From assembly GCA_965205015.1 (NCBI GenBank), contig OZ242029.1, positions 800,001 to 864,000 of the forward strand: a stretch of 64,000 nt of DNA, read 5' to 3'. Made by a program: the position numbers and the translations under genes. The DNA comes from Candidatus Poribacteria bacterium (GTDB lineage: Bacteria > Poribacteria > WGA-4E > WGA-3G). Below the pieces are notes generated by a model that saw only the letters and a list, made by a program, of their open reading frames with translations, had not been told where the DNA came from and did not search any database. Shown in pieces: positions 12,516 to 47,296 of the stretch; within the stretch, counting starts at the first letter, position 1, and the number at the start of each line of letters is the position of its first letter.

Positions 12516-14216
12516 CTACGTCTGCCCAAGAACCTTCAGAAACGCTTCATCGTCTTTTACATCCGAAAATTCAGGGGTCTCAAGGAAAGTCGGGTAGTAT
12601 GTATCCTGATTATAAGGATCTACCACATAGTACGCCTGAGCGGACTTTAAATGATGTAAAGTTTTTTCTCTGTCCTTTTCAGAAGCCCAGATGCTTGCAG
12701 CCAGCTGGAAGTGTCCATAATGGTTGTTATCTTCCAAATCAATGGCGATTTGTAGGAAACATCTCGCCTCGTTATACTTCTTAGACCACAACAGACAACA
12801 ACCGATATCGTGTGCTAACCACATAAGGTCGTCGAGATTTACAGGTTGACCCGCATCCCGTTTCTTCAACTCTCCTTCCATATAGGCACTCACTTCCGTA
12901 AAAATTCGATCGAAACGTCCCCAATCTCCTTGTTTACCGTATATGAGAAGTCGACTTTCTTTCGCAATCAACCAGAATTGAAAATAATGCTCTGAACCGG
13001 GTTCGTTGTTAGCACGTTCCAACTTTTCTATCTCAAGGAAGGCTTCATCGAACCGGTCGTTGCATCGTAATACATCTATTCCGGCCTGCAGGAATTCACA
13101 ACGCCTGAAGTAACTCACGCCTGGGTTCTCTAAGCGTTCAGAGGCGTCATTATATAGCTGAATCCAGTCATCAATACGACCTTCCGCCGCCCAACATCCG
13201 GATCCCCCCAGATTAGCACCAGCCTCCAACACATATTTATCCGGCAAGTGCTGGCACGTCCAACAGTAAAGCCGAGAGTGTTCCTCAATAGCTGCTCGAT
13301 TTCTTCCAAGAGAAGCGAGACTATCGACTAACCTGTCATGCGCCCAGAAACGCTCCGTATCACCCAGCGCGTCCTCCATATACCTACGGAGTAGAGGTAC
13401 CCGCTTTTCCATGCCGAGTTTGCCCATATACGGGTATATCTCATCGGCAGCAAGATGCACCAATTCAGGCGTGATTTCACCCTTAAGTGCGTCTTCAATC
13501 TCGTTACAGGCTTCTGTAAGAATACCCACTCTGGATGCAGGATCAGATTTCACTTTTTCCATGAATAAATTGAACTTACTGCGAACTTCTTCTAATTGTG
13601 TCATGACATTCTCCTTCAGATTATCTGATAGTTGTAGATGACCAAAAAATTCTGGATTCAAGAGTTCTTGCTCTGTTCGCAAACGCTTTCGCGCCCGTTG
13701 GAGTCGACTCGTAATTGTGTTCACCGACACCCCCATGAATTTGCCGATCTCTTTCGTTGACATTTCGTCCAGATAGAAGAGGGTTACAACTGTGCGTTCC
13801 TTCTCCGGCAGTTTTTCTAAAAGTCTTTTCACAAGTTCATGGTAATGCTCGGTTCTCTCTGTCATTCGCTGTTCTGATATATGATGCGTATAAGAGGACT
13901 GCTCGATTTCTTCTACAGGTGTATCCTCCAGGGATTGCATCATAGACTTTTGGCTTCGCATCCAATCAATGCAAAGCCGATTTGCGATAACATGGAGCCA
14001 CCCCGCAAATTGATCGGGATTCTTGAGCGTCGGAAGTTTTCTGTATGCCCTCAGGAAGGTATCTTGCATAATCTCTTCCGCATGGTGAAAATCTTGGATC
14101 TTCCGCCATGCCAGTGCATGAACGCTTTTTTGGTACTTTTCGACCAAGATGCTAAACGCAGCGTCGTCCCCAGATAAAATTTTGCGAATCAATTGAACAT
14201 CGTCTTCTCTTTCCAC
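12516..14216 (-). CDS. ECF sigma-70 factor fused to TPR-like C-terminal domain
   Basis: Region 2 (GDDAAF..LVEKYQ, AEEIMQDTF, FAGWL), region 4 (KEIGKFMGVSVNTITSRLQRARKRL), ~360 aa helical extension ending FSDVKDDEAF; GTG start with SD GAGGAGG. Confidence 0.9.
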   Translation of the reverse strand: MEREDDVQLIRKILSGDDAAFSILVEKYQKSVHALAWRKIQDFHHAEEIMQDTFLRAYRKLPTLKNPDQFAGWLHVIANRLCIDWMRSQKSMMQSLEDTPVEEIEQSSYTHHISEQRMTERTEHYHELVKRLLEKLPEKERTVVTLFYLDEMSTKEIGKFMGVSVNTITSRLQRARKRLRTEQELLNPEFFGHLQLSDNLKENVMTQLEEVRSKFNLFMEKVKSDPASRVGILTEACNEIEDALKGEITPELVHLAADEIYPYMGKLGMEKRVPLLRRYMEDALGDTERFWAHDRLVDSLASLGRNRAAIEEHSRLYCWTCQHLPDKYVLEAGANLGGSGCWAAEGRIDDWIQLYNDASERLENPGVSYFRRCEFLQAGIDVLRCNDRFDEAFLEIEKLERANNEPGSEHYFQFWLIAKESRLLIYGKQGDWGRFDRIFTEVSAYMEGELKKRDAGQPVNLDDLMWLAHDIGCCLLWSKKYNEARCFLQIAIDLEDNNHYGHFQLAASIWASEKDREKTLHHLKSAQAYYVVDPYNQDTYYPTFLETPEFSDVKDDEAFLKVLGQT

Positions 14217-14330
14217 GAAACTTCCTCCTCATGAACAGATTGAATCGTGTTGCATTCGCCAAAAGATTTAATCAAACGCCAATCTTTAAAATTAAGCAAT
14301 ACAGTCCGATTTACACTCTCTATTATTAAG

Positions 14331-14357
14331 GACGAAAGTTTAATCAAAAAACGTGCA
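14331..14357 (-). promoter_or_regulatory. Putative ECF promoter, motif A
   Basis: TGCAC-N18-CGTC upstream of sigma gene; other copies at 19452, 21014, 34030. Confidence 0.65.
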
Positions 14358-14529
14358 TTCTGCCGAAAAAACGTTCAAGTCATTGTAAATTTTATTATAA
14401 GTCAGGGTGATCGATGGATGGAACAGCGAAAAGAGCAGCACAAATGCTTTTCTGTCGTGCGGTGTCCGAAGCAAAGAACACAAGGGCACATTTGTTTCTT
14501 TGTAATATGGGAAGTTTGAAAACTATACG

Positions 14530-15936
14530 CTAAATTTCAATGCGTACAAATGCCAGGAACGCTCCGGAGAAAAAAACAACGAAAAATAGCGTTAACAACA
14601 GCAAATTCATCGCCGCTGTGTTGAAATCACGACCAAAGTTGCGTGTGTCTTCAAATTTGGGAACTGCTTCTGGATTGACGGGTTTCTGCGATACCCCCTC
14701 GCGAACACCAATGATATGAAGACTCTCCGGATCCGCTCTATCGGTATCAACAATGAATTCGCGAAATTGTTGAGCGTAGGATTGAACATTCTCTAAGAAT
14801 TGCAGGTGTCGCTCAAAACCGGTTCCAGCGAACGACTCAAGGAGATGCTCCACAATTGTGACAGGTGAAAGACGGGTGATGGTGCGCGCCCGGTTCACTT
14901 GAGAAATCCGCCGTTTTAAGTGTTCTTCGCGCAAGCGTTCCCGCTGTTCTGCGTCTTGGGTAACATACTCGCCTGACAATTGTAATTTTTTTCTTTCATC
15001 TTCGCGGACTTCATGCCAATGAGTGTCGAATTCCTCCCTACGTTCCCAAAATCCAAGACTCGTCCTGAACGATGAAGAGCGTCCCTCGGATGAAGAGTGC
15101 CCGGCGATCGAAGCAAGTGTACTGGGCATAAAAACAACAAGCGTGACCCAAGCTAACAGAAGTATCACAAGGCTTACTGCGCTCCGTTGCACACGCGCCG
15201 ATACCAATAAACCTAATGCAAGAAAAAGACAGGTGTACAGGAGCGCAATAAAGTAGATGACACCTAAACGTCCCCACGCATCTGCGCTAAGGTAAACATC
15301 ACTTGACATAGAGATTACCAACAGATTCACCAACACGGCAAGCGTAAATGGAATACTCATGCTTACCAACGCCCCTAAAAATTTGCCAATCAGCACAGTG
15401 TGCCGCGGAATCGCATTTGCCAACATTAATCGCAATGTACCCTGTTCACGTTCATTGGAGATGGAATCGAAGGTGAACAGGAGCGCGAGGAGACTTAAGA
15501 CATAGCCGATGATAAAACCCCAGTCCACTTTGGTAACCTCTGGGTCTAGGTTGTCCCGATTGGGGGTGGCAGATGGATATCCGAGTGTCCATAAGCCCTC
15601 TAAGCCACGTTCCTGCCAACTCCAGCTCTGAAAACTACTGACATGTGCGGACAAAAACGCTTCACCGCGCGCTGCGCAGAAGTGGAGGGGGGATGGTTTT
15701 TTGTGAAGATCCCCAGGTCCCTTTTGTGCGAGTGTATAGAAACTTGCGTTGGCATGAGACTTTAAACGGTTTTGATGTGCAGCGACATTCTCGCTATACT
15801 TCTGAACCCGCTCTGGATGCTCTCGGAGATGCAGAACGGCATTGGTCAGCATCAAACCCAAGAGCAGGACTGTTGCAAGCGCGAATCGGAGGCTATTGAG
15901 ATTATCATAGAGTTCGCGTTTTACGATATGCCACAT
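14530..15936 (-). CDS. ABC-2 type permease (type B, WHIVKREL)
   Basis: FTFDSISNEREQGTLRLMLAN..R..VLIGKF; multiple TMs. Confidence 0.88.
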   Translation of the reverse strand: MWHIVKRELYDNLNSLRFALATVLLLGLMLTNAVLHLREHPERVQKYSENVAAHQNRLKSHANASFYTLAQKGPGDLHKKPSPLHFCAARGEAFLSAHVSSFQSWSWQERGLEGLWTLGYPSATPNRDNLDPEVTKVDWGFIIGYVLSLLALLFTFDSISNEREQGTLRLMLANAIPRHTVLIGKFLGALVSMSIPFTLAVLVNLLVISMSSDVYLSADAWGRLGVIYFIALLYTCLFLALGLLVSARVQRSAVSLVILLLAWVTLVVFMPSTLASIAGHSSSEGRSSSFRTSLGFWERREEFDTHWHEVREDERKKLQLSGEYVTQDAEQRERLREEHLKRRISQVNRARTITRLSPVTIVEHLLESFAGTGFERHLQFLENVQSYAQQFREFIVDTDRADPESLHIIGVREGVSQKPVNPEAVPKFEDTRNFGRDFNTAAMNLLLLTLFFVVFFSGAFLAFVRIEI

Positions 15937-15940
15937 TTTT

Positions 15941-16064
15941 GGGTTCTCGGTCTTCGGTTTTCGGAGGAAAGGGTTATCGGTATGCCTCGCAGTGAGAGTT
16001 CCAAGAGGGATTTGTTAAACGAAAACCTCTTACTGACCACCGACAACTGACCACCGATAACCAC
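15941..16064. repeat. Heptamer-based inverted repeat element
   Basis: ggttctc/ggtcttc/ggttttc ... ctgaccaccgacaactgaccaccgataacc. Confidence 0.55.
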
Positions 16065-16065
16065 T

Positions 16066-17577
16066 TTACACTTCACTTTTGACGAAAATCAGAAATATCA
16101 GGATGAAAATAACGACATTCATCATGAGCAAGATGCCTACATCCGGCAAGGCTCGCTTAGCATTTGTGTTCACATTGCCCCTTTGAAAAGCAAATTCTGG
16201 AAGAATGCTCCAATCCGCTGCGCCCTGGTCTGAGGAGAACCACTGTCGAGATCCAAATGCCTCTTTATCGTAGAGAGCGTCGATCACTTCCTGTCTGTAT
16301 CGTCTCGCTGCGTCGAAGAAATCTCTGACACCGTGCAAGTCAGTATCGGTCCATGCTTGTGTTGCAGCATCATACAGCCCCACGGGTGAAAGTTTCAAAT
16401 AGAGTCGCTTCACATTTGCCGGGTGAATGAAGATATCCTCCAGCGCAGGTTTTCGGACAAGCCAGGTCTGGTCGGCCGTACGGATAATCAGCGAACCGAG
16501 GAAACGGAAATGACTCTGGGCGTGAGGTATCTTGTGTTCCTCTTTCTCATCAAACCCTTCAAACGCCAAGATACCTTCAAAGGAGTATTTTAGCGTCCGG
16601 GGGTCACCCCAGAAGTAAGCGTAAGGGTTGGATCCACTGCCTCTTAATCCAAGATTCCAATCTATTCCTGGGAAAGCGTCGGTAGCGAGGAAATGCCTCC
16701 GTTCTCTCTCAAATTCTCCTTCCCACATCTGTTTAATTTGACTAAAAGCGGAGGCAGCACGCGCCTGCGGTGCTTCAGAGCGGGGGATCACAGCAAGAAT
16801 CGTATTCGGATAGATGAGGACTAAAAACCCCCAAACGAACATCGAGAGCATCAATGCAGTACTCGTTCGACACGTCGCCGCCGAAATCAGCAGTCCGATG
16901 AGGTAAAACACTGACAGATACGCAACGGATGCCAAAAGAATCCCGCCGATCCGTAAAAAATCATCGGTGTTTAGAGAAATGGAAGGGGTCGTCGTCAGCA
17001 AGATGACGGCGAGGAGAAGGCTTATTAGCAATGGCACGAGTAGGCAGATCATCGCACTGATGTATTTGGCAAGCAGGACATGCCCGCGACGGACGTGCGA
17101 CATCAAGACGAGACGTAATGTGCCACGCTCGTATTCTCCCGCGAGGGTATCGTAGGCGAAAATCAATGCCAATAAGCTCAGGATCACCTCAAAGATAAAA
17201 ACAATATCCATGGAAGCAAACATATCCATAAACGGATTATCCGCCCCATGCATTCCGGCATCCCACAGCGATGGAACATACGTATGTGATACCTGTACCT
17301 GGTTTCCAACCCGTTTATCGTATCCAGCATTGAAAATGCTCAATGGATTGGGGGGACGGTCGATACGCACTTCACCTGCTGAATAGGTTTTTTTCGCCTG
17401 CATCTGTCGCTGATGCGTTTTGACAGCGTCGTTGTAGTCCATCAATCGCTGTTCATAATCCTTAAGAAGCACAGCAGTATTGGCGACAACAAGCAACAAC
17501 GTAATAAAGACAGCTGCAGCGAAGCGGAACGTCATCAGGTTGTCGAGGAGTTCTCGGCGGATAAGCGTTGTTAACAT
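16066..17577 (-). CDS. ABC-2 type permease (type A, MLTTLIRREL)
   Basis: RPPNPLSIF, FAYDTLAGEYERGTLRL, LLAKY. Confidence 0.88.
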   Translation of the reverse strand: MLTTLIRRELLDNLMTFRFAAAVFITLLLVVANTAVLLKDYEQRLMDYNDAVKTHQRQMQAKKTYSAGEVRIDRPPNPLSIFNAGYDKRVGNQVQVSHTYVPSLWDAGMHGADNPFMDMFASMDIVFIFEVILSLLALIFAYDTLAGEYERGTLRLVLMSHVRRGHVLLAKYISAMICLLVPLLISLLLAVILLTTTPSISLNTDDFLRIGGILLASVAYLSVFYLIGLLISAATCRTSTALMLSMFVWGFLVLIYPNTILAVIPRSEAPQARAASAFSQIKQMWEGEFERERRHFLATDAFPGIDWNLGLRGSGSNPYAYFWGDPRTLKYSFEGILAFEGFDEKEEHKIPHAQSHFRFLGSLIIRTADQTWLVRKPALEDIFIHPANVKRLYLKLSPVGLYDAATQAWTDTDLHGVRDFFDAARRYRQEVIDALYDKEAFGSRQWFSSDQGAADWSILPEFAFQRGNVNTNAKRALPDVGILLMMNVVIFILIFLIFVKSEV

Positions 17578-17614
17578 GGTTTACCCTTAAAATCAAACTG
17601 GATACAGCATTATC

Positions 17615-19333
17615 CTACTTCTGCCCGAGAACCTTCAGAAACTCTGGGTCATCCTTTACATCCGAAAATTCCGGAGTTTTAAGGAAAGACGGGTAGTAGC
17701 TATCCATATAATTGTAGGAACTAACTATATAATCGCTCTGAGCGATCTTCAAATGGTGTAAAGTCTTCTCTCGGTTTTTCTCAGATGCCCAGACGCTCAC
17801 AGCAAGCATGAAGTGATTATAATCGTTGTAATTTCCCAAATCGATGGCGAGTTGTAGCAAACGTTTCGCTTCATCATACCTCTTCGCCCATACCAGACAA
17901 CAACCGATATTATGAGCAGTACAAACAAGCTCATAGATATTTACGGGATAACCGGCACTCCGTTTTTCGACTTCTCCTTCAATAAACGTCCTTGTATCCA
18001 TCAAGACTCGATCGAAACGATCCCAATCTCCCTGTTTGCTATACACCCGAAGTCGATTCTCTCTTATCGCCAACCAGAATCGAAAATAACTCCGCCAACC
18101 CGGTTCGCCATTGGCACGTTCCAACTTTTCTATCTCAAGAAGTGCCGCATCTAACCTATCGTTCCTTATTAAGATATCTGATCCAAATTGCAGAAAATCG
18201 CAACGACTGTACTGACTCACTTCAGGGTTCTCTAAGCGTTCAGATGCCTCATTGTAAAGTTGAATCCAGTCATCAATACGGCCTTCCGCCGCCCAACATC
18301 CAGCAGTGTTCGGATTAGAAACAATCCGCAACACATATTTTTCTGAGTGCTTGCATGCCCAACGGTAAAGACGCGTCTGTTCCTCAATAGCTTCTTGATT
18401 TCTCCGAAGAAAAGCGAGGCTTTTGACTAACCTGTCATGTGCCCAGGAACGCTCCGTATCATCTGGAGTGTCATCCATATACTTCCGGAGTAGAGGGAGC
18501 CGTTTTTCCATGCCGAGACTGCCCATATACGGGTATATCTTATCAACCACAAGACGCACCAATTCAGGCGTAATTTCACCCTTAAGTGCATCTTCAATCT
18601 CGTTGGCGGCTTCCTTAAGAATATCCTCCCTTGATGCAGGGTCAGATTTCACTTTTTCCATGAATGCATCGAATTTGCTGCGAAGTTGCTCTAATTGATT
18701 CATAATATTCTCCTCCAGATTATCTGATAACGGTAAATGACCAAAGAATTCTTGATCCAAGAGTTCCGGATCTGTTTGTAAACGTTTTCGCGCCCGGTGG
18801 AGCCGACTCGCAATTGTGTTTACCGGCACGCCCAAAAATTTGCCGATCTCTTTCGTCGGCATTTCGTCAAGATAGTAGAGTGTTACGACCGTGCGTTCAT
18901 TTTCTGGCAGTTTTTCTAAAAGCTGTTGGACAAGATCACGGCAATACTCTGTTCTCTCCGTCATCCGCTGTTCTGACATGTGGTGTGTATAAGAGGATTC
19001 CTCAATTTCTTCCAAACGTGTGCCTTCCAAAGATTGCATCGCAGGCTTGTGCTTCTGTATCCTCTTTTGCTTTCGCATCCAATCAATGCAAAGCCGATTG
19101 GCGATGACATAGAGCCACCCAGCAAATTGATCGGGATTTTTAAGCGTCGAGAGTTTTTTGTATGCCTGAAGGAAGACTTCTTGCATAATATCCTCAGCGT
19201 AGTGATAATCGCCGATCTTCCGCCATACAAGGGTATGAACGCTCTTTCGGTACCTTTCGACCAAGATGCCAAACGCAGCGTCGTCCCCGGATAAAATTTT
19301 GCGAATCAGTTGAACATCGCTTTCTTTTTCCAC
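17615..19333 (-). CDS. ECF sigma-70 factor fused to TPR-like domain (paralog of 12516-14216)
   Basis: Regions 2 and 4 intact; GTG 19333 with SD GGAGG preferred over ATG 19411. Confidence 0.9.
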   Translation of the reverse strand: MEKESDVQLIRKILSGDDAAFGILVERYRKSVHTLVWRKIGDYHYAEDIMQEVFLQAYKKLSTLKNPDQFAGWLYVIANRLCIDWMRKQKRIQKHKPAMQSLEGTRLEEIEESSYTHHMSEQRMTERTEYCRDLVQQLLEKLPENERTVVTLYYLDEMPTKEIGKFLGVPVNTIASRLHRARKRLQTDPELLDQEFFGHLPLSDNLEENIMNQLEQLRSKFDAFMEKVKSDPASREDILKEAANEIEDALKGEITPELVRLVVDKIYPYMGSLGMEKRLPLLRKYMDDTPDDTERSWAHDRLVKSLAFLRRNQEAIEEQTRLYRWACKHSEKYVLRIVSNPNTAGCWAAEGRIDDWIQLYNEASERLENPEVSQYSRCDFLQFGSDILIRNDRLDAALLEIEKLERANGEPGWRSYFRFWLAIRENRLRVYSKQGDWDRFDRVLMDTRTFIEGEVEKRSAGYPVNIYELVCTAHNIGCCLVWAKRYDEAKRLLQLAIDLGNYNDYNHFMLAVSVWASEKNREKTLHHLKIAQSDYIVSSYNYMDSYYPSFLKTPEFSDVKDDPEFLKVLGQK

Positions 19334-19451
19334 GAAATTTCCTCCGAATAAATAGATTGGACCCTGTATACCCTCGCCAAAGCGTTTAATCAAATACCAA
19401 GTTTTATGCAATTAAGCAATATGAGGTAGTTTACACCTTCTATATATTAAA

Positions 19452-19478
19452 GACGAAATTTTGGGTAGAAAACTTGCA
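19452..19478 (-). promoter_or_regulatory. Putative ECF promoter, motif A
   Basis: TGCAA-N18-CGTC upstream of sigma gene. Confidence 0.65.
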
Positions 19479-19596
19479 TTCTGGGGAAAAAATGAAAAAC
19501 TGGATTTTTTAGTAGGTGTTTTGTGAGTGTCAGGCAACAAAAAAGGGAACCGGTAAAAAACCAGTTCCCTGTGGACATTCTACTGGACCTCGGAAG

Positions 19597-19938
19597 CTAA
19601 GCCGACAATCCAGCAACAGCAGCGTCCTCACTGTCAAAATGTTCAAACAGATTAACCACACGACTCAGAACAATGAGATTTCTGATATGTTTTCCGACAT
19701 TGATGACACCCACGCGTCCCTGTTTTCGCGACGCAGCAGCGTATGCCTCCATCAAGGTGCCAAGACCTGAACTATCGATCCGATTGACCTGCTCGAAATT
19801 GATGAGGATACGTGGGGTATCAGAAGCCTCTATTTGTGGCAAGATAACTTTCCGTAAGTCTGATACGGAGCGTCCGCCCACCTTTCCAGTGGGTTTCAAA
19901 ATCGAGATACCATTTTGCTGGCGAATTTGCGTTGTCAT
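19597..19938 (-). CDS. STAS-domain anti-anti-sigma factor
   Basis: ILINFEQVNRIDSSGLGTL with phosphorylatable Ser; SD AAGGAG. Confidence 0.9.
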   Translation of the reverse strand: MTTQIRQQNGISILKPTGKVGGRSVSDLRKVILPQIEASDTPRILINFEQVNRIDSSGLGTLMEAYAAASRKQGRVGVINVGKHIRNLIVLSRVVNLFEHFDSEDAAVAGLSA

Positions 19939-20056
19939 TTTTTTCTCCTTTTTTTATTTGTGAAATTTGTCACTGTTAATTGTTCTTTAATACGATTCAA
20001 ACGTTCAATTTAAGGATGCGTTGACTTAACCCGAATTCTATTAAAACACCGTCTTT

Positions 20057-20251
20057 TTAACGCAAATCCAAGTCCATCTCCGTTTTGAGGCGTTTATGGA
20101 ACGTTTCAAAAGCCGCTCCCCAAGGTCCCTCCTCTGTATGAGGATCGCGCTGTTCAGCAGGCACGACAGTCTCATCAGAGCCGAAAGCAAGGTAACCGAT
20201 GCCGAAGAGTAACAAACAGACGAGGAGTAGATTAATCATTAGGAAACGCAT
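20057..20251 (-). CDS. Small secreted or membrane-anchored peptide (64 aa)
   Basis: SD AAGGAG, signal-like N-terminus ending LAFG, polar tail. Confidence 0.6.
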   Translation of the reverse strand: MRFLMINLLLVCLLLFGIGYLAFGSDETVVPAEQRDPHTEEGPWGAAFETFHKRLKTEMDLDLR

Positions 20252-20535
20252 TTTTTTCTCCTTATTAGCGTAGGACTTGCATTTGAATTCGGAAGTGGCA
20301 ATTTTACTGAAATTTTACATCCGTTGATTTAAGTGACGCATCTTAGATGTCAAAAGGTTGCATTATTTTCAAAAAGGGTGTTGAAACCATGAAACCAAAT
20401 GAACGCAATTTGAAAAAATGGAGAGATAGAAGATGCATTCTCCGACCCCCCTCAACCCTATGACGCGTTTTAAACGTTGCCGACAATTCGGCTATCATCG
20501 ACATCAAATATCGGAGCGGAAAAATTTCAGAAACG

Positions 20536-20811
20536 CTACCGTTCATTTTTCCGTGAGGTGATATATGCCCCTTTTATAATTAATGATACAAGCTCGCGCC
20601 GAAAGGGGTGCATAAAGCGAAAAAAATCTGGATTTTTATCGAAGAGATAGCAAAATTGTTTGAAATTGAAAAGAACCCTCACGTCTCGGGTGCCGGTGTT
20701 GTGGTGGATACTATTGTTCTGATTCTTCGGATTCTGGTTCTGGATGTGTGAGTATCCATTCGTGGAAAGTTGCTCAGTCTTGAAAAAACGAGCGCATGAG
20801 CGCGAATTCAC
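20536..20811 (-). CDS. Hypothetical small protein
   Basis: GTG start with SD AGGAGG downstream of promoter motif B; no recognisable domain. Confidence 0.35.
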   Translation of the reverse strand: MNSRSCARFFKTEQLSTNGYSHIQNQNPKNQNNSIHHNTGTRDVRVLFNFKQFCYLFDKNPDFFRFMHPFRRELVSLIIKGAYITSRKNER

Positions 20812-20886
20812 CTGCAGTTCTCCTCCTTTTGCCTATATAGAGTTCGTTGAGGGAAAAAAGATAGTAAAAAATTTGTCAGGTGTCGT

Positions 20887-23454: not shown

Positions 23455-25665
23455 TCATGGCGATTCTGACAAATGCTCATCAAACCAAGAAAGCATCCGT
23501 TGCCAATAATCAGCCACATTCGGATAACGCCATGATGTGACTTGCGAATGTCCCTCACCTTCATAACGCGCTAAAACGGCCTTTTTTCCCAGTCTACGCA
23601 AGCCAGAGAACATTTCTCCTGCCTGTGGGACAGCAGGGACACCATCCAAGGCACCAACAACTAACAACAGCGGCGTCTCCACCTTGTCCAGAAAAAAGAT
23701 AGGGGAGTTTTCGATGTATCGGTCCTGGAACTCCCAGAGCGACCCACCCATTTTGCCCTGTCCTTTTTCTGCCCAATCGATCCACTGGCTATCTCCCTCT
23801 TCCGTCAAATGCCCATAGAAACTAATGAGATTCCCCACCGGCGCACTACTGACAGCTGCACTAAACCTTGATGTTTGTGTAATCAGAGCGTTGACGCAGT
23901 AACCTCCGTAACTGTGCCCCATTATTCCTAAACGGTTGGGATCGGCAATTCCCATATCAATTAGCGTATCTATACCAGAGAGCACCATCTCCGTCAACTC
24001 TCGGACCGGCGCGTTGGTTTCCATTGGGGTATCGGGAAGAAAGACGACGTAATCTTGCTTCGTCAGCAGAAAATTGCCCCCATAGCGATCTGTGCCGAAA
24101 TCGTTAAATTGATACGAGAGCAAAGAACCCCCGTAGACCTCCGTAATTAATGGATAGTGTTTGCCCTCTACATAGTCTGGTGGGAGCAGCAAGGCACCTC
24201 TAAGGTCTTTTCCAGAAGGTGTCTGCCAAGTGACGAGTTGAGAAGTCCCAAGTCGTTCTGTTTCAATATCTGGGTTCAGTCGAGTGAGTTGCTGTGGATT
24301 TTGAAAGTCGGTGTCCGCTACCCACACATCGGGCGCGTGATTTACGTCCTCAATGCTGTAGAAAATATCCCCCGTTTGAGGTGCAACATCCATGTTTCTA
24401 CCCATAGGATTATAATTACGCTTTTCCTGAACCAACCGTGTGATCTCGCGCGTTTTCAGATTGACGCGATGAAAACCGTGCTGTTCACTGTTTGAATGGA
24501 CGGTATGCATGTATATTGACTCGGTGCAGTCTGGCGACCAAACAGTGTCTGCTTCCGCTTGCCGAACAATTCGAACAACACGTCCATCAAATCCGTCTGT
24601 CAATTTTTCAATAGCGCGATCAGCGATCGTAATTCGCCAGAGATCCCCCCGGGCAACACAGAATAGGTGTTTACTATCAGAACTCCACAAAGGCGGATGC
24701 GAACTATTTGTTAGTTCAATATCGGTGTCTTGGGTGAGATTTAGTTGGCTACCGTCAACTGTCGAAATGAGGAAAAGCTCATCTTTTGCAGCCTTATTCT
24801 CTGTCGGAAACGCAACGTAGCGACCATCTGGCGACCAAGTAAACAAACGTCCCCATCCAGATTTCAGCGAGTCAGCAAGTAATTTCGGAGGTCCTCCATT
24901 TAGCGACGAAAGATAGAGTTCGTACAGTAGTTGAGCGTTACTTTCTAACCCTTGAAAACTCGTAAACGCCGCGGTCGCTCCATCAGGGGCAACACGGATA
25001 CCAGATGGATAGAGTCCCTGCGCTAACGTTTCGACTTCTCCTGTATCAACCCTTATCATCCCAAGGTCTGCGCGATATCGCGCGTCAAACCACGAAGTCC
25101 GCCGCGGTCGGAATTCATTTTCCGGTTGTCCAGCAATAGGACTCGCAAAGAGTGTTACCGATGCCTTTTCCTTGTCTGGAGGTGCTTCTTCATCTGTCTC
25201 CGCTTCTGAATGCAACCTAACGATAATACGTGTTCCATCAGGTGTCCAGAGCGGTGGCTGCGCCCTTGACAAAAACGGCTGAATCCTGACATCACTCGCG
25301 AGTCGTGGGACATCTTCGCCGACCTCCCATATCCACAATTGGGCTGTTTTATGCTTATCCGAATAAAAAGCCAATCTTTTTCCATCCGGAGACCAGGCAG
25401 GTCTATAACTTGTGCCCCAATTCGGCGTGAGATTTCGCGATTCGCCACTCTGAACATCGATGAGCCAAATTTCACTTCCTTCTTGCAAGCCAGCGATACC
25501 CGTTGGAAGATATGTTTTATCTCCGGCTCCTACGCGTTTTCTGAAATAACTTTGAACAGCAACAGCAAGTTGTGTTCCATCTGGTGAAACAGCAATTGGA
25601 TCAAATAGCGTGAGGAGTTCTATCGAGAGAATGTCCTCAATACCGCTAAAAAGGTCAGTGTGCAT
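23455..25665 (-). CDS. S9-family prolyl oligopeptidase / acylaminoacyl peptidase
   Basis: WSPDG propeller repeats, GHSYGG nucleophile, GALD, YEGEGH; ATG 25665 with SD AGGAGG. Confidence 0.92.
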   Translation of the reverse strand: MHTDLFSGIEDILSIELLTLFDPIAVSPDGTQLAVAVQSYFRKRVGAGDKTYLPTGIAGLQEGSEIWLIDVQSGESRNLTPNWGTSYRPAWSPDGKRLAFYSDKHKTAQLWIWEVGEDVPRLASDVRIQPFLSRAQPPLWTPDGTRIIVRLHSEAETDEEAPPDKEKASVTLFASPIAGQPENEFRPRRTSWFDARYRADLGMIRVDTGEVETLAQGLYPSGIRVAPDGATAAFTSFQGLESNAQLLYELYLSSLNGGPPKLLADSLKSGWGRLFTWSPDGRYVAFPTENKAAKDELFLISTVDGSQLNLTQDTDIELTNSSHPPLWSSDSKHLFCVARGDLWRITIADRAIEKLTDGFDGRVVRIVRQAEADTVWSPDCTESIYMHTVHSNSEQHGFHRVNLKTREITRLVQEKRNYNPMGRNMDVAPQTGDIFYSIEDVNHAPDVWVADTDFQNPQQLTRLNPDIETERLGTSQLVTWQTPSGKDLRGALLLPPDYVEGKHYPLITEVYGGSLLSYQFNDFGTDRYGGNFLLTKQDYVVFLPDTPMETNAPVRELTEMVLSGIDTLIDMGIADPNRLGIMGHSYGGYCVNALITQTSRFSAAVSSAPVGNLISFYGHLTEEGDSQWIDWAEKGQGKMGGSLWEFQDRYIENSPIFFLDKVETPLLLVVGALDGVPAVPQAGEMFSGLRRLGKKAVLARYEGEGHSQVTSWRYPNVADYWQRMLSWFDEHLSESP

Positions 25666-25675
25666 TATTTTCCTC

Positions 25676-26935
25676 CTATCTTGGGTCATCACACGCTTGA
25701 CTTTGTTTGCTGCCATCACCGATGCGGTTAGAACGAAATCCCGAGATGCTTCTTTCAACACTTCGGCGCAGCATCTCATCGCTGAGATGGAACGCCTCGC
25801 GTATTGTTATTGACAGTTTCTGCTGCTGCTCTATCGAATCGAGCAATTGCTGGTTTTGCACGACAACGACAGAATCAGCATTCTCTTGAATTTCCTGTAG
25901 CGAACGTTTCGCTTGTTCGGCGCGACGTTGACCCTCAAAGTTGAATGGACAGGTCACAACCCCTACAGCCAAAGCACCTTGCTCTCGGGCGAGAGAGGCG
26001 ATCAGAGGCGAAGCACCCGCTCCTGTTCCGCCCCCCATACCGGCGATAACGAAGACAATATCCGCGTCCGCAACGATGGCGTTGAGCGTTTCCCTGTCCT
26101 CCTCAGCCGCTTTTCTACCTATCTCTGGGTTCGCGCCACATCCAAGTCCTTGGGTAGTCTTAGCACCGATCTGCACCGGTGTTGCTTCAGGGTGCTTGTC
26201 AAGTGCTTGCTGGTCTGTATTCACGGCATAAAATTCAATGTCTGTCAAACCGTCTTCAATCATTCGTTTAACGGCGTTCCCGCCCGCGCTACCGACTCCA
26301 ATAACCTTGATTATAGTTTCGGTGCGTTTGGATTCTTCTCGTTTGGATGACATAGTTCTCCCTCTTTCAGGTTCGACACCGAACTCCCTGCGTAAGAGTT
26401 CACGTGTCTGTCTTAATTTGGTCTTGATTGTGCCTATCGCCAATCCGAGTTCAGTGTGGATCTCCTTGACGCTCCACAATTCCAGATAGTATAGGACCGC
26501 AACGCGGCGCACTTTATCTGGAAGGTGATGCACTGCTTCCCTTATAGCGTCGTAGTGTTCCGTTTCCCTGAAGCGTGCGACTGCATCTTGGTCGATACGA
26601 TCCGTCAGATCCGCATAACTATAAGGAATGTCGTTTCCGGAACGATCGGCAGCAGCATAGTACCGCTTGCAAGCGTTGTAAGCAATGCGATGCAGCCACC
26701 CCCCAAAACTCTCAACGCTCCGCAGTCCACTGATATTTTCCCAGACGGCTCTCCAGACATCCATGAGAATTTCTTCGGCATCGCGGGGTTGTCTCGAATG
26801 TGCGATAATCACTTTCCAGATGCGTCGACTATAACGCGACATCAGTTCTGCAAACGCTAATTCATCACCGGCTTGTGTAAGCCCAATGAGTTCTTCATCT
26901 GTTAGAATGGCGTGCGTTGATAGATCGTATCGCAT
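25676..26935 (-). CDS. ECF sigma-70 factor fused to truncated FtsZ GTPase domain
   Basis: aa 1-185 sigma regions 2/4; aa 195-419 IKVIGVGSAGGNAV, AVNTD, GLGCGANPEIG, AGMGGGTGAG, PFNFEG; no T7 loop or C-terminal domain. Confidence 0.9.
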   Translation of the reverse strand: MRYDLSTHAILTDEELIGLTQAGDELAFAELMSRYSRRIWKVIIAHSRQPRDAEEILMDVWRAVWENISGLRSVESFGGWLHRIAYNACKRYYAAADRSGNDIPYSYADLTDRIDQDAVARFRETEHYDAIREAVHHLPDKVRRVAVLYYLELWSVKEIHTELGLAIGTIKTKLRQTRELLRREFGVEPERGRTMSSKREESKRTETIIKVIGVGSAGGNAVKRMIEDGLTDIEFYAVNTDQQALDKHPEATPVQIGAKTTQGLGCGANPEIGRKAAEEDRETLNAIVADADIVFVIAGMGGGTGAGASPLIASLAREQGALAVGVVTCPFNFEGQRRAEQAKRSLQEIQENADSVVVVQNQQLLDSIEQQQKLSITIREAFHLSDEMLRRSVERSISGFRSNRIGDGSKQSQACDDPR

Positions 26936-27037
26936 AAACAGTTCCCAATTGATTTTAACCTAAAGAGTGGACTTTTTCGGAAGGTGGTTTAAAAAAAGAA
27001 AAATCGCTGTACTTTTCGCTACGCCTCTCACAGGGAC

Positions 27038-28489
27038 CTATACCTCCGAACGCAGGAAGACGAGGAAGGCTCCTGAAAGCGACACACCGAGCAGTAAAAT
27101 GAGTAACAGAATATCGACTATAGCGGGATTGAGCGTCTCCTGAAAAGACAACTTATCCTCAAACATTGGGATAGTCTCTGGTAAGACGGACCTTTCCGAC
27201 ATGCCTTTCCGGACACCCACGAAATGAAGGCTCTCTGGATCCGCCCGATCCATTTCAACGATGAAATTTCGGAAGTGTCGGATATGAAGGCGGCAGTGTT
27301 CTAAGAATTGCAAATGCCGATTAAAGCCTGTGCCTGCCATGGATTCAAGGGCATATTGGACAACCGCTGCAGGAGAGCATCGGGTTATCTGTCTTGCATG
27401 CAGGACTTGCGCACTTTGCGCAGCGAGATGCTGGCGACTCAGCCGCTCCCGAATCTCCATGTCTTTGTTAACGAACGCCTGTTGGATCTCCAATTCTGAA
27501 GTGTCTACCCCCGCAACTTCCTCCTGAGAGGTTTCTGCGGATTGACGGCGTTCTCTTAAAGTCTCCCTTTTATCCAGGAAATCGCTCCGAATTTGGTCGA
27601 AGGCGGTCCCCTTTGTCCTCTGAAATTGATGGTGCGTTTGAATCGGAGGCATCCATCTTGTGGAGAGTGTGCCGAGGGTTGACGGCATAAACACCACGAC
27701 AGTCACCCAGATGAGCAACAGGACAACCAGACTTAACCGACTTTCCCGAGTCATCGCCGAGATAATAAGCCCAATTGCGACGAAGATACCAGCATAGCAA
27801 GAAGCAATCAGCACGATCAGTCCTAAACGCCCCCAGTCTGCGCCGCTGAGCTGCGTCCAACTCTCGGTAGAAATGATGGCGAGATTGAATAACACGGCAC
27901 AATAGAAGGCAATGAGGACCGTGATGAGGGAGCCAAGGAACTTACCCATTAATAGAGTCGGGCGCGAAATCGAATTGGCAAGACACAGCCGCAGCGTCCC
28001 GCGTTCTCGTTCTCCGGAGAGCGCGTCAAAGGTAAACAGGAGCGGCATGAAAGAGAGCAGATAGGTCACAATAAAGACCCAATCGATCCCCGTGGCAGTG
28101 GGACGAAGATTGCTAATCGCCTCCATATTCAGACGTGGAACGCCCATCGACCAAATATAGGCAAGCCCGTATAACCGCCAGAAACCACCACTCACGCTTT
28201 CGTCCGGTAGTAAGGCGTCCCCGCCATCGGCGATGAAGGCGAGCGATGCGGGGCGTTTGTAAAGCTTACCGGGTCCCTTGTGTAGCAGTTCATACAACTG
28301 CGTTCGGGATTTCAATTCGGTCTGAGATGCGTTAACCTTCTCGGAATACTTTCGAACCCGTTCCGGATGGGTTCGAAGATGCACAACGGCATTGGTTACC
28401 ATTAATGCTACGAGGATGAACGTGGTTAAGGCAAAGCGGAGACTCGTGAGGTGGTCTAAAAGTTCGCGTCTGACAACATGCCAAATCAT
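27038..28489 (-). CDS. ABC-2 type permease (type B)
   Basis: WHVVRREL, FTFDALSGERERGTLRL; paralog of 14530-15936. Confidence 0.88.
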   Translation of the reverse strand: MIWHVVRRELLDHLTSLRFALTTFILVALMVTNAVVHLRTHPERVRKYSEKVNASQTELKSRTQLYELLHKGPGKLYKRPASLAFIADGGDALLPDESVSGGFWRLYGLAYIWSMGVPRLNMEAISNLRPTATGIDWVFIVTYLLSFMPLLFTFDALSGERERGTLRLCLANSISRPTLLMGKFLGSLITVLIAFYCAVLFNLAIISTESWTQLSGADWGRLGLIVLIASCYAGIFVAIGLIISAMTRESRLSLVVLLLIWVTVVVFMPSTLGTLSTRWMPPIQTHHQFQRTKGTAFDQIRSDFLDKRETLRERRQSAETSQEEVAGVDTSELEIQQAFVNKDMEIRERLSRQHLAAQSAQVLHARQITRCSPAAVVQYALESMAGTGFNRHLQFLEHCRLHIRHFRNFIVEMDRADPESLHFVGVRKGMSERSVLPETIPMFEDKLSFQETLNPAIVDILLLILLLGVSLSGAFLVFLRSEV

Positions 28490-28638
28490 TTATTAGTTCT
28501 CGATTATCAGTTTTCAGTTAAGAAGCCATCGGTTAGTTTCATATCATTTCTAAAAATAAGTATTGCATACGCGATTTTTCTGAAGGGATACACAGCGGAT
28601 TTTAACTTAAGCAAAACACCTATTAACTGACAACTATT

Positions 28639-30201
28639 CTACACTTCAACTTTGATAAAAATCAAAAATGTCGCCATGAACAGGACGATATTGGTGCATA
28701 ACAGCAAAAACAGTTCAGGTAGGGCGCGATGCGCGTTGATGCCGATTTCTGCTCGCTCGAAGTGAAAACGAGGGAGGACCGACCAGTCTATATCCGCTTG
28801 ATTTGGAGCAAACCACTGCAGGCTCGCGAACGCATCTCTCTCATGAAAGGTCCCAATGAGGGTGCGGCGGTACGCCTGCGCGGTTTGAATATAATCCACC
28901 ATGCTGTTTAAATCGGTGCCTGCCCATGCGGCGGTAGCAAACGTATAAAGGCTTGCCGGACTGAACTTCATGAGACGCTCATCCCATTGTGCTTGATGGA
29001 GGGTGGTCTGTGCTACCAACTGCTGGCCGACGAAACCGACTTCGTCGGCATTCCGGATGTGCAGGGAGGCGGCGAATGCATAATAACGGCGTAAGTGTGG
29101 CACTAAAGGGTGCGCTGTATCTTTCAGTTCAAGGTTAACCCGAGGGAAGTCCCCAAGGAAGAAATATCCTGCTCCACTAAAGAGACCTGAAAACGCTTCA
29201 GAATCTGAAAATATCGGAGACTCCCCCTTAAGCGGACTATTGGCTAAGAACCGGTGTCGTTCTCTATCCGCCGCTTCCCGAATCTGCGCTATCTGCTGCT
29301 CGGTGGATCTTTTTTTTCCACGCATGTCCGCGTCTGGATTCAAGGCAAAGCGGCTCCAATTTGGATAGACGAGCACTAAAATCACCCATAAGAACATACA
29401 GAGCATCAAGGAGGTAGCGGCACGACGGGCTATCGCGGAAACGAGCAGACCGATCAGATAGAAAACCGACAGATAGACGATTGTCATTAAAACAATGCCG
29501 CCAATTCGTAGAAAATCACTTCCACTGAATTGCAAGGAACGCGCGAAGGAACACTGAATCAGGGCAAGCAATAGACTCATCAACACGGGGAGTAGCAGGC
29601 AAACCATCGCCGCAATATATTTAGCAAACAGCACATTTCCTCGCCCGACGGGATGTGAGAGCACCAAACGCAAGGTCCCTGTCTCCCAATCTCCCGCAAT
29701 CGCGTCATAAGCGAAAAGCAGAGCGATCAGACTCAACACAACCTGAAAGATAAAGACCAGGTCTATCTGTGAAAAGAGATACAGATAGGGGTTATTTATC
29801 CCGAGCGGTGCCCCTGGACTTGAGAGGGACGGGACGCTGCCAGACACCCACTGTTCTTCCTCGGGTCTGACATCAACGATGGGATTTGAGAGGGCTGGCA
29901 CACTGTCAAACGCTATATCAAGCTCACTGCCAAAACGCGTTTCCAAGCCCGCGCTAAAGAGGCTCAGGGGGTTCGGAGGACGCTGAACCTTTAACTTTAA
30001 GACCGAATAGGTGGGGGTTGCCTCGACCTTCTCGCGATTTACCGCTTCTTTCTGACTATAGTCGGCGAGACGCTCTTCATGTGCACCGATTAAGACGAAC
30101 GTATTGGCAACGACAAGTAAGAGTGTAATGACCACCGCAGCAAAAAAACGCGCACTCATCAGATGAATCAAGAGTTCCTGGCGTATCAGGGTCCGTAACA
30201 T
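28639..30201 (-). CDS. ABC-2 type permease (type A)
   Basis: MLRTLIRQEL, RPPNPLSLF, FAYDAIAGDWETGTLRL; paralog of 16066-17577. Confidence 0.88.
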   Translation of the reverse strand: MLRTLIRQELLIHLMSARFFAAVVITLLLVVANTFVLIGAHEERLADYSQKEAVNREKVEATPTYSVLKLKVQRPPNPLSLFSAGLETRFGSELDIAFDSVPALSNPIVDVRPEEEQWVSGSVPSLSSPGAPLGINNPYLYLFSQIDLVFIFQVVLSLIALLFAYDAIAGDWETGTLRLVLSHPVGRGNVLFAKYIAAMVCLLLPVLMSLLLALIQCSFARSLQFSGSDFLRIGGIVLMTIVYLSVFYLIGLLVSAIARRAATSLMLCMFLWVILVLVYPNWSRFALNPDADMRGKKRSTEQQIAQIREAADRERHRFLANSPLKGESPIFSDSEAFSGLFSGAGYFFLGDFPRVNLELKDTAHPLVPHLRRYYAFAASLHIRNADEVGFVGQQLVAQTTLHQAQWDERLMKFSPASLYTFATAAWAGTDLNSMVDYIQTAQAYRRTLIGTFHERDAFASLQWFAPNQADIDWSVLPRFHFERAEIGINAHRALPELFLLLCTNIVLFMATFLIFIKVEV

Positions 30202-30266
30202 CGTTTTCCGTTGCCTCAATTCCACGGGTTCTACTACCGAATTAGATATTTTCCAGGGATAGGTGA

Positions 30267-32042
30267 TTAGGACTTCAAGAGCATCGGCATGATGAGGTGG
30301 ATATGTCCTTCCTCACCAACCGGCTTAACAATCACAGGATCCAACGCGCTCGAGAACTCCAATGCCAAAGACGCCGTTCCAATGTGCGTGAGCGCCTCTA
30401 TCAGCATCCGAGCATCGAGACCGACACGGATACTTCCAGTGCTGGACACCACTGCTAAGGTTTCCTGCTGCTCATCTATCTCAGAATCCCTCGGCGAAAT
30501 CCGAATCCGTTGTTCATCTATCTCTAAACAGACCGTCGGCGAAATCCGAATCTGTTGTTCATCTATCTCTAAACAGAGAGCAGGGCATTTCGGATCCGAA
30601 AATGCTGAAACCTGACGTGTTGCACGCAAAATCGGCGCTTTCTGCACAACTGTACGCATCTGAGGAGACTTTGGAAAGAGTTTCTCATACTTCGGATATT
30701 CACCGTCTACCAACTGCGCCGTCAACGTGGTTCGCTCATCCGCGAAAAGAATCTGGTTCGCAACGCGTGAAACCCGTACCTCCAAGGAATCAGCAAACGT
30801 TCGTTCAATATCTTTGACGGCTTTGAGCGGGACGATAAACCCATCGTTATCCTCAGACAACCTTAAGGGTTCACACCGTGCGATGGCAATCTGCTTGCCG
30901 TCGCATCCAACGACTTCGGTCCTGTCCTCAAGCAGGTTAAAATAGAGCCCGTTTAGAAAAGTCCGCCGGACTTTCTCCGTGGACGCAGCACATTCGGTTT
31001 TGTGGAGGATCGACCGCAGGATCTCTCCATCAATCGCAAATGCTCCCGGGTCAACAGAAGGGAGTTGTGGAAATTCCTCATCCGCAAGCCCGACGATTTT
31101 GTAAACGTCATCTCCAGAAGTGATTCTAACCCGACCGTCCGCTGTCTTTGTCACGTCTATCGGTTTCTCCGCGGGCCACGCTTTAACGATATCCCCTAAT
31201 TTTTGGGCGGGGACAGTGATCGCTCCCGCTTCTTTGACTGTCCCTTCAACCTTCATTCTGATGCCAATTTCCGTGTCCATCGCCATGCATTCAATCGTGC
31301 TTCCTTCCGCACGGATGAGAACGTTTGAGGGAATAGGTGAGGTATCCTGCCCACTCGTGACACGCTGCAGCATTTGTAAAGAAGTTAAAAGCGCATCCCT
31401 TTCAAAAGTTAATTTCATTCCAAAACCCCTATTCAAATATATTTGGGCGCGACGTTCGGGTTCAATTGTGAGGTCTAAGGCTTCCTGAATCATGAATTCA
31501 TACTGCTTTAACTGTTGTCGCGCACGTCGAAGCCGACTTTTAATCGTGTTTTCTGACACACCTAAAAAGTTACTTATTTCTGTGTAGGTCATCCCCTCAA
31601 GGTAGTGAAGCGTGATAGTTGTCCGATTGCTCTCCTTCAACCTCGCGAGCAGCTTTTCGACCACGTCGCGCCGCGCTTCAGCGAAGGTCCTCGCGTGTTC
31701 TGTCGCGATATACTGGGAATACGCCTCTGTCTCTACTTCAGAGATGTCAGTGTTTTCCAGCGGCTCAGTGTGCCGCTGGTTTTTTCGGAGCCAAGCGATA
31801 CAGAGACGATCCGCAATCACATAAACCCACCGTAGAAACCGCGTCGGATCTTCCAAGGTCTCTAATTTGTGATAGACTCGCAGGAAGGTTTCCTGCGTAA
31901 TATCTTCGGCGATATGGAAATCCCCAATTTTCCGCCATGCGAGCGCGTGAACCTGTTTCTGGTACTTTCTAACCAACCTTGAAAAGGCAGTTTCATCACC
32001 GGTGAGGACTCGTTGGATCAATGCAGCATCGTCGTTTCTCAT
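30267..32042 (-). CDS. ECF sigma-70 factor fused to DNA polymerase III beta clamp (DnaN)
   Basis: aa 1-190 sigma; aa 209-591 MKLTFERDALL, PAQKLGDIVK, ADEEFP, FLNGLYF, LVDGEYPKY, LIMPM. Confidence 0.9.
   Translation of the reverse strand: MRNDDAALIQRVLTGDETAFSRLVRKYQKQVHALAWRKIGDFHIAEDITQETFLRVYHKLETLEDPTRFLRWVYVIADRLCIAWLRKNQRHTEPLENTDISEVETEAYSQYIATEHARTFAEARRDVVEKLLARLKESNRTTITLHYLEGMTYTEISNFLGVSENTIKSRLRRARQQLKQYEFMIQEALDLTIEPERRAQIYLNRGFGMKLTFERDALLTSLQMLQRVTSGQDTSPIPSNVLIRAEGSTIECMAMDTEIGIRMKVEGTVKEAGAITVPAQKLGDIVKAWPAEKPIDVTKTADGRVRITSGDDVYKIVGLADEEFPQLPSVDPGAFAIDGEILRSILHKTECAASTEKVRRTFLNGLYFNLLEDRTEVVGCDGKQIAIARCEPLRLSEDNDGFIVPLKAVKDIERTFADSLEVRVSRVANQILFADERTTLTAQLVDGEYPKYEKLFPKSPQMRTVVQKAPILRATRQVSAFSDPKCPALCLEIDEQQIRISPTVCLEIDEQRIRISPRDSEIDEQQETLAVVSSTGSIRVGLDARMLIEALTHIGTASLALEFSSALDPVIVKPVGEEGHIHLIMPMLLKS
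30491..30580. repeat. 45-bp in-frame tandem duplication within the DnaN domain
   Basis: tcggcgaaatccgaatc(c/t)gttgttcatctatctctaaacaga x2; CLEIDEQxIRISP repeated. Confidence 0.9.
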
Positions 32043-47275: not shown

Positions 47276-47296
47276 GGGTTCTACTCCTTATCTATT

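Follow-up and report, generated by a model that had tools for sequence, protein, structure and literature searches.

Putative in-frame internal translation starts at the sigma/extension junctions of fused ECF sigma factors from Candidatus Poribacteria

Four genes, each encoding an extracytoplasmic function (ECF) sigma factor that bears a long C-terminal extension, are located on the minus strand, between 12.5 and 32 kb, of a 64,000-nucleotide stretch of DNA from an uncultured, sponge-associated Candidatus Poribacteria bacterium (assembly GCA_965205015.1, contig OZ242029.1, positions 800,001 to 864,000). This whole stretch, to which all window coordinates refer, is called the window in the following; it is an ordinary chromosome segment, on which genes for ATP synthase, tyrosyl-tRNA synthetase and ribonucleotide reductase are also present. 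Pairs of ABC-2 permease genes are interleaved with the four fusion genes. At the boundary between the sigma part and the extension, each fusion gene contains a Shine-Dalgarno (SD)-like sequence followed by an in-frame ATG, and these candidate internal translation starts are the subject of the present analysis.

The first gene (12516..14216, minus strand) encodes a protein of 566 aa, in which the ECF part is followed by a TPR/PPR-like alpha-solenoid of ~360 aa; it has a GTG start with a GAGGAGG SD, and sigma regions 2 and 4 are recognized by Pfam. The second (17615..19333, minus strand) is a paralogous ECF-solenoid fusion, for which the conserved GTG at 19333 with its GGAGG SD was preferred as the start and a TTG at 19411 was rejected. 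The third (25676..26935, minus strand; 419 aa) joins the ECF part to an FtsZ GTPase domain, which ends after helix H7 and lacks FtsZ_C, and the fourth (30267..32042, minus strand; 591 aa) joins it to a complete three-domain paralogue of DnaN, the beta-clamp. In all four proteins, PF04542 and PF08281/PF04545 are found by Pfam within the first ~185-215 residues; with region 2 and region 4, and without region 1.1 or 3, they are ECF (group 4) sigma-70 factors, and their extensions of 225-385 aa exceed the 50 aa above which an ECF is counted as having a fused extension.

The identity of the third and fourth extension, which an earlier sequence-only reading of this DNA had given as FtsZ and DnaN, is confirmed by Pfam. 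The FtsZ-type protein matches the tubulin/FtsZ GTPase domain PF00091 at residues 209-368, and the DnaN-type protein matches PF00712, PF02767 and PF02768 across residues 209-587, i.e., three clamp domains, starting at residue 209. The FtsZ C-terminal domain PF12327 is missing in the window gene and in the domain annotations of the 120 homologues listed; it was found only in three triple fusions described below. For the solenoid extension no Pfam family was matched; it is predicted to be all-helical (AlphaFold2, AF2, pLDDT 87.6), and profile, Atlas (TPR clusters) and fold searches gave only a generic TPR/PPR likeness. The AF2 model of the whole ECF-FtsZ protein has a pTM of 0.50; therefore, the packing of its domains is not readable from the model.

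The strength of an SD is given here as dG, the duplex energy (kcal/mol) to the canonical anti-SD. In the first solenoid gene, AAGGAG (13616-13611) precedes the ATG of Met205 (13604-13602; site 13602..13616, minus strand, dG -8.8). In the second, GGAGGAG (18716-18710) precedes the ATG at 18703-18701 (site 18701..18716, minus strand, dG -9.3), which is Met237 in the longest open reading frame (ORF) and Met211, as numbered by the sequence-only reading, when counted from the GTG at 19333. The FtsZ-type gene has GAGGGAG (26364-26358) before the ATG of Met195 (26353-26351; site 26351..26364, minus strand, dG -8.5), and the DnaN-type gene has the SD-like AGGGG (31430-31426) before the ATG of Met209 (31418-31416; site 31416..31430, minus strand), the weakest of the four with a dG of -5.9. 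With spacers of 6, 6, 4 and 7 nt, all four sites combine an in-frame start codon (ATG, GTG or TTG being allowed) with an SD at a distance of 4-9 nt. The four SD-plus-ATG sites of the sequence-only reading were, thus, all found in frame on the minus strand; since the two TPR-type genes are paralogous, they count as three independent cases, not as four.

The organism makes use of SD sequences, as seen from GGAGG-type motifs ahead of 5' starts. Among 42 ORFs of the window, 13 starts (31%) reach a dG of -7; for the 358 in-frame internal ATGs of these ORFs, this value is reached by 13 (3.6%), and a dG of -6 by 28 (7.8%). Three of the 13 strong internal sites are the junctions discussed here, and at least four of the other ten resemble genuine starts of ORFs that were called too long. 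In each of the four fusion genes, the junction ATG has the strongest SD among all internal ATGs of its gene (14, 14, 6 and 9 ATGs), and local mRNA folding at the junction is weaker than the gene average (z +0.5, +0.9 and +1.2). A scan of 12400-32200 for internal sigma-70-type promoters, with ECF-type promoters outside its scope, returned 24 sites versus 23.9 expected; two matches near the internal ATGs of the DnaN and the second solenoid gene are at chance level.

FtsZ-type genes additionally show a 12-pair hairpin (GAACTCC...GGAGTTC core) 25-55 nt before the internal ATG, at 26375-26408 in the window (RNAalifold). It is the gene's most stable local folding window (z -2.8), its 3' arm is AAGGAG-like, and the consensus structure leaves the SD and ATG free of pairing. 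With a covariation term of only -0.29 and compensatory changes in 3 pairs, the hairpin is not claimed as an element.

For comparison with relatives, species-representative genomes were scanned with the sigma part of the FtsZ fusion, resulting in 79 loci with 10-kb flanks. Six-frame ORFs together with a hidden Markov model of the sigma part yielded 188 sigma-bearing ORFs at these loci, 165 of which have an extension of at least 100 aa. By type of extension, these comprise 54 WD40, 51 FtsZ (including the window gene), 41 solenoid (including the two window genes) and 17 DnaN fusions (including the window gene) as well as 2 singletons. In addition, the best 120 matches to the DnaN fusion (mostly 576 aa) all contain sigma and clamp domains, and the best 120 matches to the FtsZ fusion (~405 aa) all contain sigma and tubulin domains. 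A quick IQ-TREE analysis of 183 sigma domains (midpoint-rooted for drawing only) resolved two deep fusion clades—FtsZ with WD40-A (86 rows, support 99) and solenoid with DnaN and WD40-B/C (80 rows, support 88). Type of extension and sigma clade go together, short canonical ECFs fall apart from both fusion clades, and the internal start signal is present in both.

Three of the homologous loci encode the triple fusions mentioned above, ORFs of ~1450 aa (L046:9977-14326, L047:9977-14323 and L049:9977-14281) composed of an ECF sigma factor, a full FtsZ (GTPase domain and FtsZ_C) and DNA polymerase III alpha (DnaE) with PHP, NTPase, finger and HHH parts. Another locus, from a long-read assembly, carries an ECF-DnaN gene (L009:1919-3684) split by a frame change ~20 codons past the junction Met, so that a 307-aa sigma ORF is followed by a DnaN match in another frame; the break may point to a pseudogene or to an erroneous indel.

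The junction Met is invariant in 121/121 ECF-DnaN and 121/121 ECF-FtsZ proteins (the best 120 matches listed plus the respective window protein). In the FtsZ-type protein, it lies within residues 190-204, which have a pLDDT below 50 in the AF2 model; given this predicted disordered linker, protein structure does not explain the invariance. At the DNA level, the junction codon is ATG in 51/51 FtsZ-type and 17/17 DnaN-type genes, while the 41 solenoid-type genes have 37 ATG and four GTG codons, and the four GTG genes carry the strongest SD, AAGGAGGA (-11.7). A dG of -7 or stronger is found in 50/51 FtsZ-type, 41/41 solenoid-type and 5/17 DnaN-type genes; all 17 of the latter reach at least -5, with GGAGAT or GGAGGT and a dG of -6.4 to -10.2 in the 16/16 relatives of the window gene. 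Soluble WD40 fusions, which do not occur in the window, show the same signal, namely ATG in 34/34 type A genes (a set that includes one transmembrane-type gene), 25 of them at -7 or stronger, and an SD with a dG of -8.2 to -8.5 in 6/6 type C genes. The sigma/FtsZ junction of the triple fusions likewise retains SD and ATG (dG -10.5).

The fusion genes also possess a conserved 5' start with its own SD. In FtsZ-type genes, the median dG is -4.2 at the 5' start versus -8.5 at the junction; in DnaN-type genes, a GTG serves as 5' start in 11/17 at -6.4, compared with an ATG at -6.6 at the junction. Judged by these values, the FtsZ type should have an internal site no weaker than its 5' site, and in the DnaN type the internal site has the better start codon.

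Conservation of this kind could reflect the peptide rather than the DNA, i.e., a Gly/Arg/Glu/Lys linker, an ENIM motif or an SD-like pause for the folding of sigma region 4, all without any initiation. To some extent the peptide does contribute, given that synonymous shuffles of the junction peptides already give a mean dG of -3 to -9 and that NL(T/K)ENIM is common to relatives without an SD, implying partly protein-level conservation. However, the position of the motif is held while peptide and codon phase change. In FtsZ-type proteins, the residues before the Met vary (ERGR, EGVR, IGGN, TRGK, NIGG, QKGR, ERGT), and yet a purine-rich GGAG/GGGG/GAGG core is kept 4-8 nt upstream; in a set of 61 unique 27-mers, purines make up at least 93% at positions -12 to -8, and G makes up 92% at position -9. 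Instead of the K-E-N (AAG GAG AAT) of the main subfamily, a divergent solenoid subfamily encodes K-G-D (AAA GGA GAT), in which AAGGAG is preserved with a shift of one base against the codon phase. Neither a linker nor a pause site needs an invariant ATG/GTG at 4-8 nt, and the four Met-to-Val changes of the solenoid type all use GTG, which is still a start codon.

Synonymous codon use points in the same direction. Within the main solenoid subfamily (34 genes), the junction Lys is AAG in 32/32 and the junction Glu is GAG in 34/34 genes, as opposed to a background use of 35% for AAG and 31% for GAG. The junction is the only GAG-fixed column among 26 conserved Glu columns and the only AAG-fixed column among 14 conserved Lys columns; 19 other single-codon columns mostly use common codons, and one of them is the 5' GTG start. 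Across 95 unique junctions, Arg is AGA/AGG in 51/51 cases (background 28%) and never CGN (0/51), and Gly is GGA/GGG in 83/95 (background 47%). Synonymous-site conservation of the SD in homologues, the check proposed together with the sequence-only reading, is thereby supported, with only modest statistics when individual peptides are shuffled.

Three sets of controls bear on the same question. In 14 WD40 relatives that are anchored by a transmembrane helix after the junction, most keep NLTENIM, spelled ACT GAA AAC; the Met is kept in 11/14 (Leu, Ile or Ala in the other three), GAA encodes the motif-position Glu in 10/10, and the dG of +0.1 to +1.2 corresponds to no SD. The idea that amino-acid conservation (e.g., of ENIM) accounts for the SD-like codons, named beforehand as what would overturn an internal start, fails on these proteins. 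The FtsZ-to-DnaE junction of the three triple fusions has neither a start codon nor an SD, and its linker displays none of the features described. Other conserved Met columns also lack an SD, with a mean dG of -4.4 to +1.6 versus -7.6, -8.7 and -9.1 at the junctions. Taken with the codon data, we regard an effect of the peptide or of elongation alone as quite unlikely.

The origin of the junction is most readily seen in the DnaN type. DnaN proteins that stand alone in Poribacteria (367-370 aa, N-terminus MELTFEKDDLL) share 59-67% identity with the fused domain and are encoded on the same chromosomes as the ECF-DnaN fusions; accordingly, the fused DnaN is a paralogue, not the housekeeping clamp. 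The fused domain starts with MKLTFERD at the junction Met, which in the alignment corresponds to residue 1 of standalone DnaN, so that the internal ATG represents the captured start of a duplicated dnaN gene. Capture of an in-frame downstream gene is also a published scenario for ECF extensions (PMC7671368, in its accessible part). A template for such a layout is present in the window itself, where its one short ECF gene (48656-49201) and a zf-HC2 anti-sigma gene (47997-48659) form a canonical pair with an ATGA stop-start overlap; the anti-sigma gene has its SD (TGGAGAG) within the sigma gene's 3' end and its ATG directly after sigma region 4. The fusions look like this coupled sigma/anti-sigma arrangement minus the stop codon. 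Furthermore, FtsZ-type and WD40-A fusions share the junction and the first residues beyond it (M-S-S-K), which suggests a conserved linker-SD-ATG cassette behind which one C-terminal domain was swapped for another.

Solenoid- and DnaN-type junctions (13601-13604, 18700-18703 and 31415-31418 in the window) have ATGA or a +1-frame stop one codon earlier in 40/41 and 17/17 genes, respectively. ATGA itself occurs at 30/41 solenoid-type, 17/17 DnaN-type and 3/51 FtsZ-type junctions, and it may have been left by an overlapping stop in the ancestor or reflect a preference for a second codon starting with A.

All of this—the aligned DnaN Met, the layout of the window's ECF/anti-sigma pair, the +1-frame stops that fit an ancestral overlap, and the published capture scenario—is also what would be expected if the SD and ATG were merely leftovers of the captured or fused gene, persisting without function due to too little time or because the residues are tolerated. 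Regarding their origin, the proposal of the sequence-only reading that the sites are relics of fusion by loss of a stop codon therefore stands; as a functionless relic it fails on retention. Pairwise protein identity falls to 43-48% within the families and only 3-4% of the conserved columns are single-codon, and still start and purine core persist via rare codons. That such relics do decay is shown by the FtsZ-to-DnaE junction, where the start has been lost, and by the transmembrane-type WD40 relatives, which lost the SD and kept the peptide. A relic without function is, thus, unlikely.

DnaN-like genes have met ECF systems elsewhere in the phylum as well. At L053:712-2856 (and at L045, L048 and L051), an unfused short ECF (175 aa) and a zf-HC2 anti-sigma factor (129 aa) are followed by a gene of its own for a divergent DnaN-like protein (384 aa), whose identity to the fused DnaN is 25-28%; this implies that DnaN paralogues were linked to ECF systems more than once. 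Four further proteins of the fused-DnaN type (P0246, P0248, P0249 and P0255) begin at the junction Met (MKLTLERD...) without a sigma part. Some of them are on tiny contigs; P0246 (367 aa), on a contig of 310,661 bp, may owe its start to the gene caller or may truly be unfused.

Internal SD-like sequences are frameshift stimulators in dnaX and prfB, and the +1-frame stop that overlaps the ATG in the solenoid- and DnaN-type genes with ATGA would be in line with programmed frameshifting that releases a free sigma factor after sigma region 4. Such recoding is highly improbable, considering that X XXY YYZ heptamers between -12 and +30 nt are found in only 3/51 FtsZ-type, 0/41 solenoid-type and 1/17 DnaN-type genes, for which reason a dnaX-type -1 frameshift site was rejected. 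Moreover, FtsZ-type genes rarely have ATGA and no nearby +1 stop (the first one is 30 codons on in 31/51), and the spacing between SD and ATG suits initiation, not the 3-nt spacing of prfB.

Several points weigh against initiation at the junctions. The codon counts come from related sequences and not from independent events, and the junction peptides, rich in Gly, Arg, Glu and Lys, are predisposed to SD-like strings. When shuffled synonymously, the observed dG is better at p<0.05 for only 8/47 distinct peptides (p 0.007-0.42). The DnaN family is shallow, with 22% of its conserved columns single-codon, and the SD of the window's DnaN junction is weak, at -5.9 versus -5.0 for the gene's next best; among the soluble WD40-type junctions, a few are poorly served, with a dG as weak as -2.9. 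Finally, the anti-SD of Poribacteria is assumed to be canonical, with the GGAGG-type motifs before 5' starts as the only support. All 47 junction peptides lie on the strong side of their own shuffle mean; given the modest p-values of the individual peptides, the case is built on codons fixed column by column and on the controls.

On this basis, start and SD are conserved beyond what the protein requires, less clearly so in the DnaN family, and each of the four genes likely has an internal initiation site, in frame, functional and under selection, where sigma region 4 meets the extension. Since start and SD are kept at the DNA level in relatives from dozens of genomes, two products are probable for each gene, the fusion and a free protein from its second half. 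The two-product proposal of the sequence-only reading is, therefore, supported in part; comparative support is strong for the internal start, which is backed by start and SD conservation over long evolutionary distances, by their persistence when amino acids are replaced, by the shift in codon phase and by skewed synonymous use.

Under this reading, a sigma2-sigma4 module would have captured a gene downstream of it, whose ribosome-binding site and start codon would have become the internal site and since been retained by selection. Ribosomes initiating at the 5' start would make the full-length sigma fusion, while those binding the internal SD would make the free C-terminal domain—TPR-like solenoid, FtsZ GTPase domain or DnaN paralogue; with both starts in use, fusion and free extension would coexist. 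The free domain might then act in trans on the partner or ligand of the fused copy. By competing with the fused domain, by binding the sigma part or by co-assembly, e.g., in a DnaN heterodimer, it could set the threshold or stoichiometry of sigma activity. Such a trans-acting role is a tentative proposal and may well not hold; a complex prediction of the sigma part (alignment A2) with the solenoid (alignment A1) gave a score of 0.00 and weighs neither way. The signal is kept for four unrelated soluble folds and not for membrane-anchored ones, which, speculatively, favours a general role of a free copy—a sensor or regulator competing or pairing with its fused counterpart, with fold-specific variants such as mixed DnaN dimers being conceivable.

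A more specific idea is that the fused and free paralogues of DnaN, FtsZ and FtsZ-DnaE serve as integrated decoys or sensors, forming sigma/regulator pairs within single ORFs. Once bound by a phage protein or toxin that targets the clamp, FtsZ or Pol III, the decoy would switch the tethered sigma factor, and an internally initiated free decoy would buffer the threshold. Its counterpart would be the integrated-decoy logic of plant immune receptors. We consider this idea very unlikely as it stands.

The scanned neighbours of the fusion genes encode ABC-2 permeases, ABC ATPases, MacB-like permeases and an S9 peptidase; none of the scanned neighbouring ORFs matched zf-HC2, the scan having covered, among ORFs below 100 aa in 12516-32042, only a STAS ORF. 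A minus-strand module consisting of an ECF fusion followed by two ABC-2 permease genes with DUF3526 occurs twice in 12516-33919, flanked by ABC ATPase and MacB-like genes, and these transport genes may be the targets of the sigma factors. The ORF of the S9 peptidase (23455-25779) overlaps the end of the ECF-FtsZ gene (25663-25779) only in its longest form; its likely real start is an ATG at codon 39 (25665) after TAGGAGGA (dG -10.2). The tail of the window's ECF-FtsZ protein is 14 aa longer than in most homologues. Within DnaN domain III of the fourth fusion gene, a 45-bp tandem duplication at 30491-30577 (1.9 copies, 97% match) adds 15 residues, while the usual 576-aa homologues are without it; among the matches listed, only one cluster (591 aa, 94% identical) equals the window protein in length. 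Further along, at 43349-49201, the canonical ECF and its zf-HC2 anti-sigma factor are followed by a DUF4252 protein and five consecutive DUF5694 paralogues, one of which is fused to DUF4252; a further DUF5694 gene is found at 36080-37171.

Currently, fused ECFs are treated as one-component regulators, with a single protein carrying its sensor domain in cis. If the present interpretation is correct, one reading frame would yield a sigma-sensor fusion plus the free sensor at a ratio set by two ribosome-binding sites, i.e., a regulatory layer that has not been considered so far for a large family of fused ECFs. Internal initiation, known from scattered E. coli genes, would then become a design principle of a family or phylum that can be detected from sequence. 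In addition, fusions of sigma factors to paralogues of DnaN, FtsZ and Pol III alpha, which our literature searches did not find in print, raise the question of how transcription control relates to copies of replication and division proteins.

Extensions of ECFs as such are well documented, comprising SnoaL-like domains in ECF41, TPR domains in ECF42 and WD40-like domains in ECF57 (PMC7826278, PMC8999054). The Poribacteria proteins share with these groups the sigma2-sigma4 core, the long extension, the lack of an anti-sigma gene among the scanned neighbours and the correspondence between type of extension and sigma clade. The accessible text and supplement of PMC7826278 and the accessible part of PMC8999054 contain no mention of DnaN, FtsZ or FtsZ-DnaE extensions, nor do they describe an internal start for the fused groups. 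Likewise, neither our literature searches nor the accessible portions of these two papers and of PMC7671368 report a Poribacteria ECF, an ECF-DnaN or ECF-FtsZ fusion or an internal start in an ECF gene. With coupled ECF/zf-HC2 operons, the fusions have in common that the SD of the regulator lies within the 3' end of the sigma gene and that the ATG comes right after sigma region 4; there, however, the sigma ORF stops and two separate proteins are the only outcome, whereas the fusions, without a stop, also give a covalent product.

CheA-L and CheA-S are an in-frame isoform pair. Other known pairs of this kind are those of infB, clpB and mrcB (10.1101/520783, in its accessible part). In all of them, one ORF gives two N-terminally different proteins by means of an internal SD and start, and the short form can co-assemble with the long one; unlike the fusions, they involve neither a sigma factor nor the separation of a DNA-binding module from a sensor or regulatory module. 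What appears to be new here is the putative systematic use of internal initiation at the sigma/extension junction of a phylum-wide gene superfamily, for which the nearest documented case is E. coli arcB. As far as the accessible part of the source goes, an SD-led in-frame start lies exactly at a domain boundary of this signalling protein, so that full-length ArcB and the free C-terminal domain ArcB-C are both made, and the arrangement is preserved across species (10.1101/520783). ArcB is a sensor kinase, not a sigma factor, and ArcB-C was demonstrated by western blot and mutation, while the Poribacteria fusions are known from their sequences. In contrast to the single arcB gene, the Poribacteria feature recurs across a paralogous superfamily in which the same junction precedes a beta-clamp, a tubulin-like GTPase, a TPR solenoid or a WD40 domain.

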